Source: an uncultured candidate division Zixibacteria bacterium (lineage in GTDB: Bacteria > Zixibacteria > MSB-5A5 > GN15 > FEB-12). From it: DNA of 64,000 nucleotides. Below, piece after piece: positions 50,935 to 57,054 of this stretch (position 1 is the first letter of the stretch; every line of letters begins with the position of its first letter). Below the pieces are notes generated by a model. That model searched no databases. It saw only the letters and a list, made by a program, of their open reading frames with translations, and had not been told where the DNA came from. The DNA lies in contig CAVTJJ010000003.1 in NCBI GenBank assembly GCA_963735035.1, forward strand, positions 352,001 through 416,000, given 5' to 3'. Position numbers and translations under genes: made by a program.

Positions 50935-51862
50935 CTATTTGAAGCGGCTCGGGCGGCGAGCTTCCCATTCGACTACGATCGGGCTGGCGACGAAAATGGA
51001 ACTGTACGTTCCAATGATCACACCCAGAATCATCGCGAATGAGAAACCGCGCAGCACTTCGCCTCCGAAGAGGAACAATATCACCACCACAATCATAACG
51101 GTCATCGAGGTGTTGATCGTCCGCGACAACACCTCGTTGATCGACCGATTGACCGAGTGCACGAATTCACCACGGCCTGCGGTACTTCTTCAGGTTCTCA
51201 CGAATACGGTCGAACACCACCACCGTATCGGTCAGCGAATATCCGGCCAAAGTCAGCAGCGCCGTTATGATCAACTGATTGAACTCGACCCCGAGCACGT
51301 AACAGATGCCGAGCACCGCCAGTACGTCGTGGAAAGTCGCAATCGTCGCGGCCATGCCGAAGCGGAAATCGAATCTGACCCAGATGTAGAGCAGAATTCC
51401 GATCAGCGAGATGATGACCGCCCAGGTGGCGTCGCGGCGAAGATTCTCTCCGACCGCCGGGCCGATAACGTGTTCGGAAACAATCGTGAATTCATTACCG
51501 GCGAATTTCTGCGTCAGCAGATTCTTGAGCGTGGTCGCCTCCTCACGATTAGCCGCTTCCGACCCCGGTTGCTTCGTCTTGATAAGGAAGGCGTTGGGGA
51601 TGTGGAAATCGGTCAGGCTGGTCACGGCGGCGTCCGGGAAAGTGCCGGACAGGGCGCCGCGGAGCTCGTCGATCGCCACCGGTTTCTGGAAATGACCCTG
51701 AAGCATCACACCGCCGGCGAAATCGATGCCCATATTGGCTTTGCCCATGGCGGTCATAATGAAGGCAAAAAGGCCTACGGTCACCAGCAAGGCGGATATC
51801 CCGAAAGCGACTTTGCGCTCGCCGATGAAATTGATATTGGTATCAGGTAATATTCTAAACAT
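50935..51862 (-). CDS. secF: Protein translocase subunit SecF, split by a frameshift near 51178
   Basis: GIDFAGG, IGPAVG, HDV, GYSLTDTVVVFDRIREN; second part VLSRTINTS and GTYSSIFVASP. Confidence 0.95.
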
Positions 51863-51881: not shown

Positions 51882-53576
51882 CTATATACTCAGGGTTTGA
51901 TAGGCCTTGCGGACATCGAAGATCGCCTTCGTAATCACATAGGCCGTGTACAGGGAAATAGTCACACCCCAGAACAGGGTGATGGCGAACCCGCGCACCG
52001 CACCGGATCCGAAGATGAACAGCGCCAGGGCTGTGATAAGCGTGGTCACGTGCGAGTCAAGAATAGTCAGGAAAGCCCGCTCGTAACCGGCATCGATCGA
52101 AGCTCGAACCGTCTTGCCGGTTCGCAACTCCTCTCTGATGCGCTCGAAAATCAGAATATTCGAGTCGACCGAGATACCGATGGTCAGGATGATACCGGCG
52201 ATACCGGGCATCGTCAGCGTGGAATGAAGTCCGGCCATAATCGCCAGCAGGAAAAAGATGTTGAAGAGCAGACCGATATCGGCGATCACTCCGGAGATTC
52301 GGTAATAGATGCCGATGTACAGCAACACGATGATGAGCCCGACCATCGACGAGTAGAACCCTTTGCTGATCGAGTCGGCTCCGAGCGAGGCGCCGACCAC
52401 GTTCTTTTCGATGATCTCCACCGGCGCCGGAAGCGCACCGGCTTCAAGAACGATCTTCATGTTCACGGCGTCGTCAATCGAGGCCGAGCCGCCCATCGTG
52501 ATAGTGCCGCTGCCGCGAATCTTGGAATTGATGAACGGGGCGGACTCGACTTTGCCGTCGAGCACTACCGCCAGCGGCTTGTTGATGTTGGCGCCGGTCA
52601 ACTGGGCGAAGCGAGCGTTGCCATCGGAAGTGATCCGGAAGTCAACTTCGTGACCGCCCATCTGACCACGACGGAGCGAGATGTTTTCGAGATACTTGCC
52701 GACAAATTGAACTTTGCGCTTGAGCAAATAGAGGTCCCAGACATCGCGACCGTTTCGACTCTCGGTCCGAGTGGACCAGGCGAACTGGAGATCAACGGGG
52801 ATCAACCGCTGAACTTCGGGCATGGCGAGCCAGGCCTCCATAGCGGGCCGATCGGTCTTGTTGACCGCCCAGCCGGGCCAGTATTCGCGGGTCTGACTGC
52901 CACTCATCCATTGATCGAGACGGCTTGAGAAGGGATTGACTTCTTCCGATGTGCCCTGCTTCTCGTCAAAAGCAAACGCCGAGGTGTCCTTGGCGGAATC
53001 TTTGCCCATAAGGTCGGCCATGACATCGCTCTCACCGGTCTTGGCAGTATCGGTCTTGGCCGTCGGAGTCGTGCCGGACTTGGCCAATTCGGAGGCGTGC
53101 ACCACCGAGTCGATCTTCCGGACGATCAACGAAGCGTTGTCGTTGTTTTCGAGCAGCTTGAATTCGAGCACTGCCATCTGGCCGATAAGTTCTTCGGCAC
53201 GATTGGCGTCGGTGTAACCGGGAAGATCGATGATGATCTGATCGGTCCCCTGCTTCTGTACGTTCGGTTCGGCCACTCCGAGACCGTCAATACGAGTGCG
53301 GATGACCTGCATGGCCCTGTCAACCGCCCCGGTCGTTGCATCTTTACCCAGTTCCTCGGTCTTGACCCGGAGTACCACGTGGATACCACCCTGAAGATCG
53401 AGACCCAGGCGAATAGCTTTCTGTTGCAGGGCGAGCAAATCACCCGGCTGTTTCTCCTGCATAATCTGACGGGCAGTGGGTTCCATCGTCCACAGCTTGA
53501 ACGTGTCCCAGAAGGCCAGCAGGCCGACCACGACCAGCACGGCGGTAATGAGAATGCGCCATTTCTGTCCTGACAT
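51882..53576 (-). CDS. secD: Protein translocase subunit SecD
   Basis: LGLDLQGG, RIDGLGVAEP, AGALPAP, LTMPGIAG, DSNILIFERIREE and ILDSHVTT. Confidence 0.97.
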   Translation of the reverse strand: MSGQKWRILITAVLVVVGLLAFWDTFKLWTMEPTARQIMQEKQPGDLLALQQKAIRLGLDLQGGIHVVLRVKTEELGKDATTGAVDRAMQVIRTRIDGLGVAEPNVQKQGTDQIIIDLPGYTDANRAEELIGQMAVLEFKLLENNDNASLIVRKIDSVVHASELAKSGTTPTAKTDTAKTGESDVMADLMGKDSAKDTSAFAFDEKQGTSEEVNPFSSRLDQWMSGSQTREYWPGWAVNKTDRPAMEAWLAMPEVQRLIPVDLQFAWSTRTESRNGRDVWDLYLLKRKVQFVGKYLENISLRRGQMGGHEVDFRITSDGNARFAQLTGANINKPLAVVLDGKVESAPFINSKIRGSGTITMGGSASIDDAVNMKIVLEAGALPAPVEIIEKNVVGASLGADSISKGFYSSMVGLIIVLLYIGIYYRISGVIADIGLLFNIFFLLAIMAGLHSTLTMPGIAGIILTIGISVDSNILIFERIREELRTGKTVRASIDAGYERAFLTILDSHVTTLITALALFIFGSGAVRGFAITLFWGVTISLYTAYVITKAIFDVRKAYQTLSI

Positions 53577-53704
53577 TGGGAATCCTTTCTAAAATATCTT
53601 GTGCTACTTATTTCGCAAAATAGTGACACCAGCCCGGCGTAATACCGCCCGCTGGATGTTACCGAACCGTTCACGGTTCAGTCTGACAGAGAATTGACGA
53701 GGAG

Positions 53705-54142
53705 TTAGCTGGTGCCCGAAGGGCGAGCGCCAACGAGCGTGAAGCGATGCCCGATCTGAGAGGCGACCAGACTCACGGATTGATAAACGGCGCTGTGCGC
53801 GTTAAGTCCGTGGCTGGGGCTGATCTCGACGGTCGAGGGCGAGAAGATCAGGCGGTGGGAAAAGCTGCCACCCGCCGGAAGACCCGGATTCCCTTGCATC
53901 AAGAAGCACTGCTCAGTGCTCGGATGACTGCCGGGGGCCATGCCGCCGGTAGCTTCCTTGGGATCGGGCTTTTGGTCAAAGGCTGCGGCGACCGAAGTTG
54001 ATTCGGCCGGGCTGGGAGACATTTGCTCGGTGAACAGACGATGCGCCGCGCCGGCGCCGGTTATCATCAGAGCCAGTAGCGCTCCGACAACCACGGCGAC
54101 ACGTAAACCGGTCAAAGTAATGTGGGCGAATCGTCTCAACAT
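53705..54142 (-). CDS. Membrane-targeted upstream ORF of secDF, candidate translation-arrest monitoring peptide
   Basis: Basic N-terminus plus hydrophobic segment, Ser/Pro-rich linker, C-terminus RFTLVGARPSGTS*, 128 nt upstream of secD on the same strand. Confidence 0.6.
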   Translation of the reverse strand: MLRRFAHITLTGLRVAVVVGALLALMITGAGAAHRLFTEQMSPSPAESTSVAAAFDQKPDPKEATGGMAPGSHPSTEQCFLMQGNPGLPAGGSFSHRLIFSPSTVEISPSHGLNAHSAVYQSVSLVASQIGHRFTLVGARPSGTS

Positions 54143-54197
54143 AGCCTTTCAATATATCGTCGGATTTTCGTTAGTCAACGCAAATCGCTCGCCTCGC

Positions 54198-54226
54198 TTG
54201 ACATCGCCAGTCGACCCACGTAGTTT
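54198..54226 (+). promoter_or_regulatory. sigma70 promoter of the M16 peptidase gene
   Basis: TTGACA-N17-TAGTTT. Confidence 0.55.
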
Positions 54227-54294
54227 AACCCGTTGCCGTGAAGATAGTTATTTCACCGGCTCAACTTTTGAACAGTTCTCAAGAGGTCCTGGCT

Positions 54295-57054
54295 ATGAGA
54301 TTCCTGGTGTCCTTTCCCACAAGACTCTTTCTGGTTGTGTCCGTCTTTGCCGCCCTGGCAGTCACCGAACCGATTCAGGCCGCAGGTCAGCCCGACAAGC
54401 TCGACAACGGCATGCAGACGATCCTGATAGAAAACCACAGTTCCCCGATGATCGCCTGTGTCATTTTTGTGCGCTCCGGAAGCAAATACGAATCGGAATA
54501 TGAAAACGGTATCACCCACTTTCTGGAGCACCTACTTTTCGACGGCACAACTCACCTTACGCGGGAAGAACTCAGCAACTCCATCCGTGACCTCGGCGGC
54601 TACATAAACGCCTTCACGCGAGAGGACCTGACGGCCTACATGGTGCTCCTGCCCAAGCAGTATATCGAGTATGGCATGACGACCGAAGTCGATATGCTTT
54701 TCAACTCGGTCTTTCCGGAGAATGAACTGACGAAAGAACGTCAGGTGGTAATCGAAGAAATCCGTCGCGACACCGACGACCCGGGCGCCCCGGCCAACGC
54801 GTTCTTCATGAAGCAGGCTTACGGCGACACCGACTACGGGCGTCCGGTCCTGGGATATGAGCCGTTCATCGCCAATATCCCCCGGGGGGCCATCATTCAG
54901 TACTGGAAGACCCACTACACGCCCGACAAGATGACCGCGCTGGTAATCGGTGATTTTGATACCAAGGCTATGAAAGCGACACTGGAGCGCATATTCGGCC
55001 GCATCCCGAAGAATAACAACGCGGAAGCTTCCAAGGCTACGGAGTTGCACCGGAAGCTGGCCGAAACGAAGCAGCGGAACGGCACAATTGTCGGACAGAA
55101 GCGATACGATACAACAGCAGCGGTGACATCGGCGTATGTGAATTTCTCGCTCGCGGCACCGTCGTTGAATTCAGCGGACTATCTCCCGTTCGACCTGCTG
55201 AGCCAGTACCTGTCTCTGGACGAAATTTCTCCCCTTTCCAAGGCTCTGAAGAACGGGGATCATCCGCTGGCCAGCGAAGTAACCGTATCGCTGAATACGC
55301 GGGCTGAATTCGCCCGGATGGATATTTCGGTGCTTACCGAAACGCCTCAGAATTGCGACAGCATCGTGAATACGGTTCTATCGACACTGTCCGGAATGGC
55401 GACTCAAACGGCTGATCCGGGCGATCTCAAAGGGATCAAGACCGGCATCCGTTGTGACGCCATCTACAACGCCGAGAAGCTCCACTACTACGCATTTCAA
55501 ATTGCCCCGATGATGATGTCAGCAACCTGGAGTTGGATTCAGAGCTACCCGGATCGCCTGGACAGCGTCAAGTGGGAGCAGTGTAAGAAGGCCGCTGACC
55601 GTTGGTTGAGTAAACCGAATTATATAGCCACGGTCGTCCGTCCGGCCGACTCGAGCCAGACTGGATTCAAACCGTCATCCCTCACCGCTGAACAGGTAAT
55701 AGCCCATTTCGATTCGACCAGTTTTCCTGCCTACGATCTGACCAAAGGGTACGAGTTGAAATATCCACAGACTGATTCGGTCGTCCTTGATCTAACTGAC
55801 AAGGCGGTCTATTGTCGAGAAATACTGCCGAACGGACTTACAGTACTGGTCAAATCGAGCCGCGACAGTCGCGTTTTCGCGATCAATATTCTCGGGAAGA
55901 ACCGCTCGGCCTGCGAACCGGACGACAAAGCGGGCATCACCGATTTCGTGAATCGGTGTCTGGCCAAGGGGACGCCAACCAGAAACGCCCAGCAAGTCAG
56001 CCGCGACCTGGCATCGATCGGAGCCAATCTGACCTTGAATGACAATCCGTGGATTCCATATGATGATCGCTATACTACACGGGGTTTTTCGTTCATAAAG
56101 TTCGAAACCATCGAGCCGTTCGCCAAAGAAGGGTTCGACCTTCTGGCCGATCTGGTACAGCACCCGGCGTTCGATTCCACTGAAGTTGAAAACGTCCGCA
56201 CCGAAATGCTGGGGACCATAAGCCGAAACGCCAGTTCGCCTTCGCAAGTAGCCCGCGATTTGTTCTACGCCCAGTTGTTCGCCGGACATCCCTTCGCCAA
56301 GAGCATCATGGGAAATGCGGCAACAATCGGATCAATTATTACCACCGACCTGCGAAATCACCATCTCAGATTCTACGCGCCGGGTAACATGATTCTGTCT
56401 GTCGTGACCAGTCGCGACACCTCGGAAGTGATGTCGTGGGTGCGAAGCAGTTTCGGAGCACCCTCAATCGAGCAGCAAGTCTGCCCGTCACCCGGCGTTC
56501 CTGCAATTGCTTCCGGGCAGCTTCATCAAGAGCTGGCCAAAGAACAGATTGCGATCTATGCAGGCGGGCTGCTTCCCGGGGCTGATTCGTCGGATGCCCT
56601 GCAGGCTCAAGTGGCCGTTTCAATTCTCTCTTCCCGCTTGGGTGAAATTCTTAGGGAGCGGCAAGGACTGGCGTACTCCACCGGGGCCGGGTCGGATTTC
56701 CAGCGCAATTTCGGATGGTACCTCGTGAGTATCGCTACCGGCAGCCAGAATTATCAGACGGCGCTCGACGGCCTGAGTCTTCAGACCGAGAAGCTGGCTT
56801 TGGACGGCCCGTGGGATACCGAAGTTAAGGGAGCCAAGAATCAGATGTGGGGACAGCTCATGAGCGCCAAGCTTTCACGTATCAACCAGGCGTACTATCT
56901 GGGGTTGGATGAATTCATGGGACGTGGTATAGGATATGATAAGCGTCTGCTGACCGCCCTGTCGAAGATCACGGTGTTGACGGTGCGTGATGCCGCCGGG
57001 AAGTATCTTCGCCCCGAAGAGTGGGTGATCGCGACCGCCGGCAAGAAGCCCTAG
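54295..57054 (+). CDS. M16 (pitrilysin/insulinase) zinc peptidase with a tandem two-half architecture
   Basis: Signal peptide, HFLEH, NAFT, ERQVVIEE; second half LPNGL and LRERQGLAYS. Confidence 0.92.
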   Translation: MRFLVSFPTRLFLVVSVFAALAVTEPIQAAGQPDKLDNGMQTILIENHSSPMIACVIFVRSGSKYESEYENGITHFLEHLLFDGTTHLTREELSNSIRDLGGYINAFTREDLTAYMVLLPKQYIEYGMTTEVDMLFNSVFPENELTKERQVVIEEIRRDTDDPGAPANAFFMKQAYGDTDYGRPVLGYEPFIANIPRGAIIQYWKTHYTPDKMTALVIGDFDTKAMKATLERIFGRIPKNNNAEASKATELHRKLAETKQRNGTIVGQKRYDTTAAVTSAYVNFSLAAPSLNSADYLPFDLLSQYLSLDEISPLSKALKNGDHPLASEVTVSLNTRAEFARMDISVLTETPQNCDSIVNTVLSTLSGMATQTADPGDLKGIKTGIRCDAIYNAEKLHYYAFQIAPMMMSATWSWIQSYPDRLDSVKWEQCKKAADRWLSKPNYIATVVRPADSSQTGFKPSSLTAEQVIAHFDSTSFPAYDLTKGYELKYPQTDSVVLDLTDKAVYCREILPNGLTVLVKSSRDSRVFAINILGKNRSACEPDDKAGITDFVNRCLAKGTPTRNAQQVSRDLASIGANLTLNDNPWIPYDDRYTTRGFSFIKFETIEPFAKEGFDLLADLVQHPAFDSTEVENVRTEMLGTISRNASSPSQVARDLFYAQLFAGHPFAKSIMGNAATIGSIITTDLRNHHLRFYAPGNMILSVVTSRDTSEVMSWVRSSFGAPSIEQQVCPSPGVPAIASGQLHQELAKEQIAIYAGGLLPGADSSDALQAQVAVSILSSRLGEILRERQGLAYSTGAGSDFQRNFGWYLVSIATGSQNYQTALDGLSLQTEKLALDGPWDTEVKGAKNQMWGQLMSAKLSRINQAYYLGLDEFMGRGIGYDKRLLTALSKITVLTVRDAAGKYLRPEEWVIATAGKKP

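Follow-up and report, generated by a model that had tools for sequence, protein, structure and literature searches.

The 64,000-nucleotide stretch analysed here (the window; contig CAVTJJ010000003.1 of assembly GCA_963735035.1, positions 352,001 to 416,000, from an uncultured candidate division Zixibacteria bacterium) carries the single secD/secF locus of its genome on the minus strand, and directly 5' of secD, on the same strand, lies a small open reading frame (ORF) of 145 codons with an ATG start and a TAA stop. The gap between the small ORF and secD is 128 nt (53577..53704), secD is co-oriented with the ORF, and secF is next. An earlier note made from the letters of the window had described this arrangement, together with the basic and hydrophobic N-terminus and the C-terminal sequence of the encoded protein, and had proposed a new translation-arrest peptide that monitors secretion; the position, strand and both terminal sequences were found as described. 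We show here that the small ORF is a conserved gene of the phylum, and argue that a Sec-monitoring arrest peptide is its probable product.

The encoded protein is foreign to the curated libraries. Pfam and NCBIfam give no match to it, a profile search against PDB sequences returned a single non-significant match (E 0.3), the ESM Atlas gave no usable match, and Rfam has no match in 53300..54400 at E <= 1. The idea that the ORF is YajC or a YajC substitute was rejected, as it has no match to PF02699 and a bona fide YajC is encoded elsewhere in the genome, just outside the window (G000:C3:350263-350496, 99 bits to PF02699).

Relatives of the ORF are nonetheless numerous. A word-indexed search of proteins yielded 27 sequences 144-169 aa long, the window's own included; three carry the label of hypothetical protein from Zixibacteria metagenome-assembled genomes in their source records. 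A six-frame search with the single window protein matched all 24 of the 24 genomes of the same family. Each of the 27 loci examined first has one ORF ending [TRA]-L-[VLI]-G-x-x-P-S-G-T-x-stop, with secD starting 77-148 nt downstream on the same strand. Adding loci from a degenerate DNA pattern search brought the set to 50 distinct loci, and in all 49 that reach far enough to include secD its start lies 75-148 nt downstream of the small ORF on the same strand. That pattern, T-L-x-G-x-x-P-S-G-T-x-stop, was present in 120 of 285 Zixibacteria genomes, once per genome with one exception, while a reversed control pattern gave 2 matches in total. A profile built from 49 family members matched 133 of the 285 genomes, and the matches were confined to two families of one order: 103 of 107 genomes in the window's family, 29 of 33 in the second and 0 of 145 in the other 18 families. 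The small ORF is single-copy and found only upstream of secD, and its frame is open in every matched genome, with 0 internal stops. Against 1.84 billion cluster representatives the profile matched 253 protein clusters at E <= 0.001, of which 195 have E <= 1e-10; among the 150 matches listed, nearly all reach the last residue of the protein.

Two loci deserve separate mention. The genome with two pattern matches (G105) has a second copy at G105:C1:2800900-2806000 (L065), which consists of the small ORF and the first 55 codons of secD, is 88% identical to the main locus and ends in a run of N. We considered a paralogue and rejected it: a near-duplicate beside an N run is an assembly artefact, probably a strain-variant fragment joined into the scaffold. 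In one genome of a third family (G025, locus L062), a 178-aa ORF ends T-L-L-G-H-K-P-S-G-V-S about 169 nt upstream of secD, with Val at position -2 in place of a near-invariant Thr. Because this variant was missed both by the pattern and by the profile at E <= 1e-5, the family is possibly wider than our counts.

Conservation peaks at the very end of the protein. In a logo of 171 proteins, with positions numbered from the C-terminal end, Gly at -8, Pro at -5 and Gly at -3 are invariant (171/171 each). Leu at -10 is present in 170/171, Thr at -2 in 168/171, Thr at -11 and Val or Ile at -20 in 166/171 each, Ser at -4 in 165/171, Ser or Thr at -24 in 163/171 and Val at -9 in 157/171, followed by Leu at -16 (139/171), Phe at -12 and Ala at -7 (131/171 each) and Gly at -15 (129/171). 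Position -6 is Lys in 112 proteins, Arg in 49, His in 5, Val in 3 and Ile in 2, and the last residue is Ser in 133, Gly in 28, Met in 8 and Ile in 2. The proteins thus end in PSGTS (127), PSGTG (25), PSGTM (8) or other sequences (11), and the invariant Gly at -3 is always exactly two residues from the C-terminus (171/171). The whole module is ~24 residues long, which about fits the ribosomal exit tunnel. The earlier note had suggested checking whether ORFs upstream of secD share F-T-L-x-G-A-[RK]-P-S-G at their C-terminus despite a variable middle, and this is what is seen at 50 of 50 distinct loci. Over the last 15 residues the majority-residue fraction is 0.79-0.95 among the 149 members that look full-length (138-160 aa), and the middle is poorly conserved, at 0.11-0.16 in residues 41-50 and 101-120.

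The codons beneath this module are free to vary. Over the 50 loci the invariant Pro is encoded by CCC (16), CCT (14), CCG (11) and CCA (9); all four synonymous codons are used at Thr -11, Gly -8, Pro -5, Gly -3 and Thr -2, and Leu -10 draws on six codons. TAA ends the ORF in 30 loci, TAG in 15 and TGA in 5, and the bases 3' of the stop are unconserved. With variation at third codon positions, in the choice of stop codon and in the sequence that follows, but none in the invariant residues, selection is on the peptide and not on the RNA. The Ser codons show a pattern of their own: Ser -4 is always TCN (50/50, with all four TCN used) and Ser -1 is AGY in 38 of 39, while the alternatives at -1 (Gly GGY, Met ATG and Ile) are one or two steps from AGY.

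These data dispose of one alternative, namely that the ORF is a chance opening in GC-rich DNA or that its conservation is due to an RNA element or to frames on the opposite strand. The local GC content is 0.62-0.64, above that of the flanks, and long ORFs do run on the other strand (53747..54001 and 53940..54503, plus strand), which speaks for such an explanation. It is refuted by the 253 protein clusters with end-to-end matches of equal length, by a frame that is open in genome after genome with no internal stop, and by invariant residues that use all their synonymous codons in a region with no Rfam match, and we give it practically no weight. The small ORF is a real conserved gene, far beyond chance.

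The N-terminus of the protein has the sequence features of an exported or anchored one. Lys or Arg occurs among the first 14 residues in 147 of the 149 members, a hydrophobic 15-residue window falls within the first 50 in all 149, and in 140 a small-x-small sequence follows this window, at which the signal may be cleaved. The AF2 model (49-row alignment) has a helix over residues 2-41 with a predicted local distance difference test score (pLDDT) > 90 and a short helix at 128-133; the remainder is unfolded, with 10-residue blocks at pLDDT 48-66. Between the hydrophobic core and the C-terminus lies a spacer with a median length of 118 residues (range 110-127, interquartile range 117-120).

A second, moderately conserved motif, P-D-P-x-E-A-x-G-x-M-A-x-x-G-x-x-P-x-T-E-Q at residues 58-78, interrupts the variable middle, with M68 kept in 137 and P74 in 127 of the 149 members. 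Its distance from the end is nearly fixed: from the equivalent of P74 to the C-terminus there are 72 residues in 101 of the 127 proteins, 71 in 19, 73 in 5 and 70 in 2. The stretch before the motif is more variable in length (67-84 residues), and the sequence between it and the C-terminal tail is 15-32% conserved. An internal start at Met68, with Shine-Dalgarno-like (SD-like) acidic codons upstream, was considered and rejected, as 12 of 149 members have Val, Thr, Ile, Leu or Gln there instead and one locus has Trp.

Two linear motifs 70-73 residues apart in a chain of narrow overall length are also what a two-point binder could need, and this is where a second explanation enters. The product could be a small exported or membrane-anchored accessory protein, for example a tether or adaptor of SecDF or of another periplasmic export factor, in which residues 58-78 and the last 24 residues bind at a fixed distance and co-transcription with secDF reflects a shared function. 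The strict synteny with secDF and the N-terminal helix predicted with high confidence agree with this. Against it, conservation peaks at the last residues and the end is fixed two residues past an invariant Gly in 171 of 171 proteins, which is typical of peptides that act in the tunnel or the peptidyl-transferase centre, and the remaining chain is predicted to be disordered and is poorly conserved. The gene is moreover absent from 18 of the 20 families of the phylum although they keep secDF, which is unexpected for a structural subunit, and YajC is present elsewhere in the genome. We regard an accessory protein as an unlikely, though serious, competitor to the arrest peptide.

The earlier note had seen TTGACT-N16-TATATT ending 8 nt before the ATG of the small ORF, and the site is there, at 54178..54151 on the minus strand; a scan of 53300..54500 gave no other promoter-like site (1 in all, against 0.5 +/- 0.7 in shuffles). 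The form TTGACN-N16-TATAWT recurs in 47 of the 50 distinct loci, ending 8-30 nt before the ATG (<=16 nt in 41 of the 47), and the remaining 3 have near-consensus variants or a longer leader. Because the space between promoter and ATG is too short for a Shine-Dalgarno sequence in most loci, the mRNA of the small ORF would be leaderless or near-leaderless, with transcription starting at or close to the ATG. The genome of the window has 66 perfect TTGACN-N16/17-TATAWT sites, and at 7 of them an ATG 4-20 nt downstream starts a frame of at least 60 codons; these 7 are candidate leaderless genes, the small ORF among them, and with 7 of 66 consensus sites a promoter that abuts an ATG is not the rule in this genome.

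The same promoter type is found where the ORF is missing. In the three sister-family genomes without the ORF that were examined (L061 in G026, L063 in G029 and L064 in G041), TTGACA-N16-TATATT lies directly upstream of secD in 3/3, with a leader of roughly 50-75 nt. Since these families carry the promoter directly before secD, in the ORF-bearing families the ORF sits between promoter and secD; a promoter placed directly before secD is again unexpected if the product were a structural subunit. The earlier note had named a promoter of secD's own in the gap as a possible objection. A consensus promoter was found in 0 of 49 gaps, and lenient sites in 6 of 49, against 4.8 +/- 2.1 in shuffles, so that a gap promoter for secD, none being conserved over the 49 gaps, was rejected.

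The gap itself has a characteristic start. Over the 50 loci, nucleotides +1..+20 after the stop contain C at 0.36-0.38 and G at 0.16-0.18, and at least 14 of these 20 nucleotides are pyrimidines in 27 of 50 loci, against 115 of 1891 proxy genes of this genome. The tract looks rut-like and may hint at a Rho or terminator route; the genome encodes Rho. In most gaps a stable hairpin begins somewhere from +1 to +42, and the GAACC/GGTTC stem of the window recurs in two same-genus relatives. The z-score of the minimum free energy of the gap averages -0.92 and is below -2 in 9 of 49 gaps, and genus-level gap alignments share only the Shine-Dalgarno sequence and, in one genus each, a short hairpin. 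A conserved RNA element was rejected on these grounds, with no Rfam match in 53300..54400 and gap alignments that show little beyond the Shine-Dalgarno sequence; an intrinsic terminator was rejected as a family feature, a hairpin followed by a T-run being present in only a handful of loci. The clearest of these, L059 (genome G094), has a textbook intrinsic terminator just after the stop of the small ORF, a hairpin at +4..+41 of -21 kcal/mol followed by TTTTTTT, the 5' arm of which would be covered by a ribosome held at the stop. The features of the locus are collected in Table 1.

Table 1. Features of the small ORF and the secDF locus, in window coordinates, ordered in the direction of transcription.
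Feature	Position	Strand	Basis
Sigma-70-type promoter TTGACT-N16-TATATT	54151..54178	-	10/12 consensus matches; -10 ends 8 nt before ATG
Candidate Sec-monitoring leader peptide ORF (145 aa + TAA)	53705..54142	-	ORF call, family searches
Export signal or N-in anchor, residues 1-33: basic N-terminus, hydrophobic core, small-x-small end (GAGAA)	54044..54142	-	AF2 helix, family counts
Second motif, residues 58-78	53909..53971	-	Family conservation
Proposed arrest sequence S-x-S-L-V-x-S-x-L-G-[RH]-[QR]-F-T-L-V-G-A-[KR]-P-S-G-T-[SGM], residues 122-145	53708..53779	-	171-protein logo, 50-locus codon table
Stop codon directly after the motif	53705..53707	-	50-locus table
Pyrimidine-rich C>G tract, first 20 nt after the stop, ctcctcgtcaattctctgtc	53685..53704	-	Base composition
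Two gap hairpins: GAACCG/CGGTTC at +26..+41; longer one at +42..+83, then weak T-run	53622..53679	-	Folding
Shine-Dalgarno AGAAAGGA of secD, 6 nt before ATG	53583..53590	-	GAAAGG-type in nearly all loci
secD, 564 aa	51882..53576	-	Pfam SecD_1st, SecDF_P1_head, SecD_SecF_C
secF, read in two frames	50935..51862 (51167..51862 + 50935..51162)	-	ORF call, comparison with relatives

We think it probable that the small ORF defines a new, lineage-restricted family of Sec-monitoring arrest peptides, which would control the sole secDF operon of these Zixibacteria and would most likely act at termination. The strong promoter would start the mRNA at the ATG or a few bases from it, and the N-terminal signal or anchor would target the nascent chain to SecYEG. 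The tail of ~24 residues, lying in the exit tunnel, would block the peptidyl-transferase centre, and because the ORF always ends exactly after the motif, the block would most likely occur as translation terminates, when the A site is occupied by the stop codon. The second motif, ~72 residues upstream, may serve as a handle or brake for the export force, by analogy with a translocon-contacting segment of VemP that is located similarly, and by the same analogy active SecDF-driven translocation would pull the chain and free the stall. When export is slow, the ribosome would stay at the end of the ORF and secDF expression would rise. Our preferred guess for the last step is that the stalled ribosome sits over the C-rich tract, or over the base of the first hairpin, and so blocks Rho loading or a terminator, as for the E. 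coli leader TnaC. A fuller proposal, a three-part monitor that combines a termination stall through the tail T-L-V-G-A-[KR]-P-S-G-T-[SGM]-stop, a ruler of ~72 residues and anti-termination on a leaderless mRNA (by occlusion of Rho or of a hairpin, and not by unmasking of a Shine-Dalgarno sequence), we put forward only tentatively. If the ruler were real, the second motif would be in or just beyond the translocon when the ribosome meets the stop, and release would specifically need the periplasmic SecDF motor.

The arrest-peptide architecture that the earlier note had seen upstream of secDF draws support from the two checks described above, on C-terminal conservation and on gap promoters, and from four published criteria for candidate Sec-monitoring arrest peptides, taken from a screen of 30,175 GTDB genomes (Fujiwara et al. 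2024, PMC10987492); stalling itself is a prediction from sequence. The small ORF agrees with all four of the sequence criteria set out there: it is a small unannotated ORF that matches neither Pfam nor NCBIfam and that precedes secDF in the same orientation in 49 of 49 loci; its AF2 helix and composition counts point to an N-terminal signal or transmembrane segment; its C-terminus is conserved (0.79-0.95, against 0.11-0.16 in the middle); and its spacer, at a median of 118 residues, is longer than 30. The earlier note did not recognize the C-terminus as a described motif, and it is indeed not among the motif classes listed in PMC10987492. PSGTS is absent from the main text of that paper and from nine supplementary files, two of these incomplete, and in the same material Zixibacteria appears only in the list of genomes screened. 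As far as full-text searches reach, we found no published description of the small-ORF family.

Several observations weigh against an arrest peptide. Within most secA and secDF leader families described in PMC10987492 the spacer varies widely, and the very tight spacer of the small ORF (interquartile range 117-120) is unlike most of these; it would also suit a protein that contacts a single partner through both motifs, held a fixed distance apart. The motif is unlike any validated arrest sequence, so that stalling is not inferable from precedent. The expected RNA switch is not predicted. No gap structure conserved family-wide was found (49 gaps; no Rfam match), and secD carries a strong Shine-Dalgarno sequence of its own, with A/T-rich sequence 5' of it. 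Masking of this sequence was assessed by partition-function folding from 60 nt before the stop to 30 nt after the secD ATG, both for the free RNA and for one bearing a ribosome footprint. Across 26 loci the pairing probability averages 0.52, and 0.48 with 31 nt around the stop held single-stranded, against 0.53 in a control with the block shifted 30 nt upstream. Over 49 loci the sequence pairs mostly with nucleotides >50 nt after the stop (0.20) or within secD (0.10); it pairs with the presumed footprint in 4 of 49 loci and with nucleotides +1..+30 in 6 of 49. Unmasking of the Shine-Dalgarno sequence is thus not our proposal for the coupling, since predicted folding shows no general effect of the ribosome, and because such a switch is, by these predictions, not a family feature, a simple copy of the SecM, MifM or VemP design is disfavoured; the earlier note had made no claim of such a stem. 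The Rho or terminator route is itself a guess, drawn from base composition, a few terminator-like hairpins such as that of L059 and the presence of rho.

The lack of a predicted switch is equally in line with an accessory protein, and with a third explanation. The ORF could be a cis-acting leader that stalls or slows at its stop in response to a metabolite, an antibiotic or the status of translation, or that sets the level of secDF constitutively. A motif at the stop followed by a C-rich tract recalls TnaC, and the apparently leaderless mRNA would suit such a leader too. It is harder to reconcile with an N-terminal export signal conserved in 147-149 of 149 members, and a second motif kept at a constant distance from the C-terminus makes little sense if the exported part of the chain does not matter; the downstream genes, too, are export genes. 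We consider a leader of this kind improbable, more so than an accessory protein, and retain the Sec-monitoring arrest peptide as the better account.

Two neighbours of the small ORF have features of their own. secF is split in two frames (231 aa and 75 aa), with the break near 51163..51177 on the minus strand. Compared with both same-genus genomes, in which the secF frames are open for 316 and 313 aa, there is one extra base near 51175, in CGCAGGCCG; the break reflects an assembly indel or else a genuine frameshift in the genome's only secF. On the other side, the small ORF is flanked by a divergent gene for an M16 (insulinase-type) peptidase with two M16/M16_C pairs (54238..57054, plus strand). 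Its listed GTG start is probably too early, as an ATG at ~54296 opens MRFLVSFPTRLFLVVSVFAALAV, which is signal-peptide-like.

Nature provides probes of the ribosomal tunnel and the peptidyl-transferase centre in the form of arrest peptides, and each unrelated arrest motif so far has revealed a different way of silencing the ribosome. The small-ORF family offers a sharply defined new motif with ~12 near-invariant positions, represented by 253 protein clusters, from an uncultured phylum. A motif that abuts the stop, together with a second element fixed to within 1-3 residues, would suit the study of pulling force, chain geometry and release-factor action. If the arrest peptide is real, feedback regulation of Sec would extend to Zixibacteria, and the absence of a stem that masks the Shine-Dalgarno sequence may show a different route from the stall to the downstream genes. 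The concept is not new, as many lineage-specific arrest families are already known, and the family would not add a new principle unless the ruler and the coupling without a Shine-Dalgarno switch are borne out.

Of the known systems, VemP is the nearest functional analogue. Both are small exported proteins (159 aa for VemP, 145 aa for the small ORF) with an N-terminal signal, encoded directly upstream of secDF, and both have a conserved C-terminal module of ~19-26 residues that ends within three codons of the stop. VemP stalls three codons ahead of its stop, with Q156 in the P site (PMC5449182), and Phe157 then occupies the A site. Its Arg-85, which is outside the ribosome and 71 residues before Q156, retards translocation and so makes release dependent on PpiD and SecDF (PMC7793623), and residues 74-86 contact the SecYEG translocon in the arrested state (PMC7793623, PMC5449182). 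Each protein thus has a second conserved element ~70-80 residues before the arrest point, at 71 residues for Arg-85 of VemP and 70-73 residues from the C-terminus for the Pro of the small ORF, a distance that by analogy would parallel the Arg-85 region. The two differ in that VemP combines an elongation stall with an unmasked ribosome-binding site, whereas the motif of the small ORF directly adjoins the stop and most loci have no predicted stem of this kind, and in that VemP serves secD2-secF2 and the small ORF precedes the genome's only secDF. Curated families show no sequence similarity between them, the arrest windows not being aligned residue by residue. Homology to VemP found no backing in Pfam or NCBIfam, which gave no match, or in PDB chains, which gave E 0.3 only, the presence of a VemP model in those libraries being unconfirmed.

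In where the motif ends, the small ORF is nearer to the stop-dependent leaders of secDF and secA described in PMC10987492, whose motifs lie at the extreme C-terminus and need the stop codon in the A site. The small ORF may share this stop-codon dependence, to judge from the position of its motif, which ends at the last residue before the stop in the 171 proteins. The motifs themselves are not the same, being N-A-P, N-S-P or D-G-M-K in those leaders and P-S-G-T-[SGM] in the small ORF, with a last residue of Pro or Lys in the former and of Ser, Gly or Met in the latter. Bacteroidota and Zixibacteria belong to the same FCB superphylum. One of the stop-dependent leaders, uDF_NAP-stop, was found in Bacteroidota (PMC10987492).

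The RAPP-like (RQH) peptides, SecM with RAGP, ApcA with RAPG and ApdA and ApdP with RAPP, have the same architecture and genomic position, and like the small ORF they have a basic residue followed by a Pro/Gly-rich stretch ([KR]-P-S-G compared with R-A-P-G or R-A-G-P). In the small ORF, Pro comes directly after the basic residue and is followed by near-invariant Ser-Gly-Thr, and the first position is Lys in 112 of 171 proteins, outside the RQH definition given in PMC10987492. The sequence is none of R/Q/H-[A/G]-P-P, R-A-G-P and R-A-P-G, and the family falls outside this class.

LudP of Lacrimispora is a validated 147-aa signal-bearing leader of secDF known from one lineage, and the preprint that describes it, which has more candidates in its dataset, reports that its arrest can be species-specific (bioRxiv 10.64898/2026.10.26.761930). 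Like the small ORF, LudP lies directly upstream of secDF, is lineage-restricted and conforms to the same criteria, and it can arrest at termination. Its motif, I-H-[DN]-S-D-G-[EK]-K-[GE] (I-H-N-S-D-G-E-K-E), lies ~10 residues before the C-terminus, and LudP is validated whereas the small-ORF family is predicted. The last comparison concerns coupling rather than layout. In the tnaA operon of E. coli, the leader TnaC halts the ribosome when the stop codon has entered the A site; this ribosome hides a Rho-loading site next to the stop, so that transcription continues downstream. TnaC is a non-exported peptide of 24 aa that senses tryptophan, unlike the small ORF with its 145 aa and export signal, but because a C-rich tract follows the stop and the genome encodes Rho, its mode of coupling is the one we favour for the small ORF.

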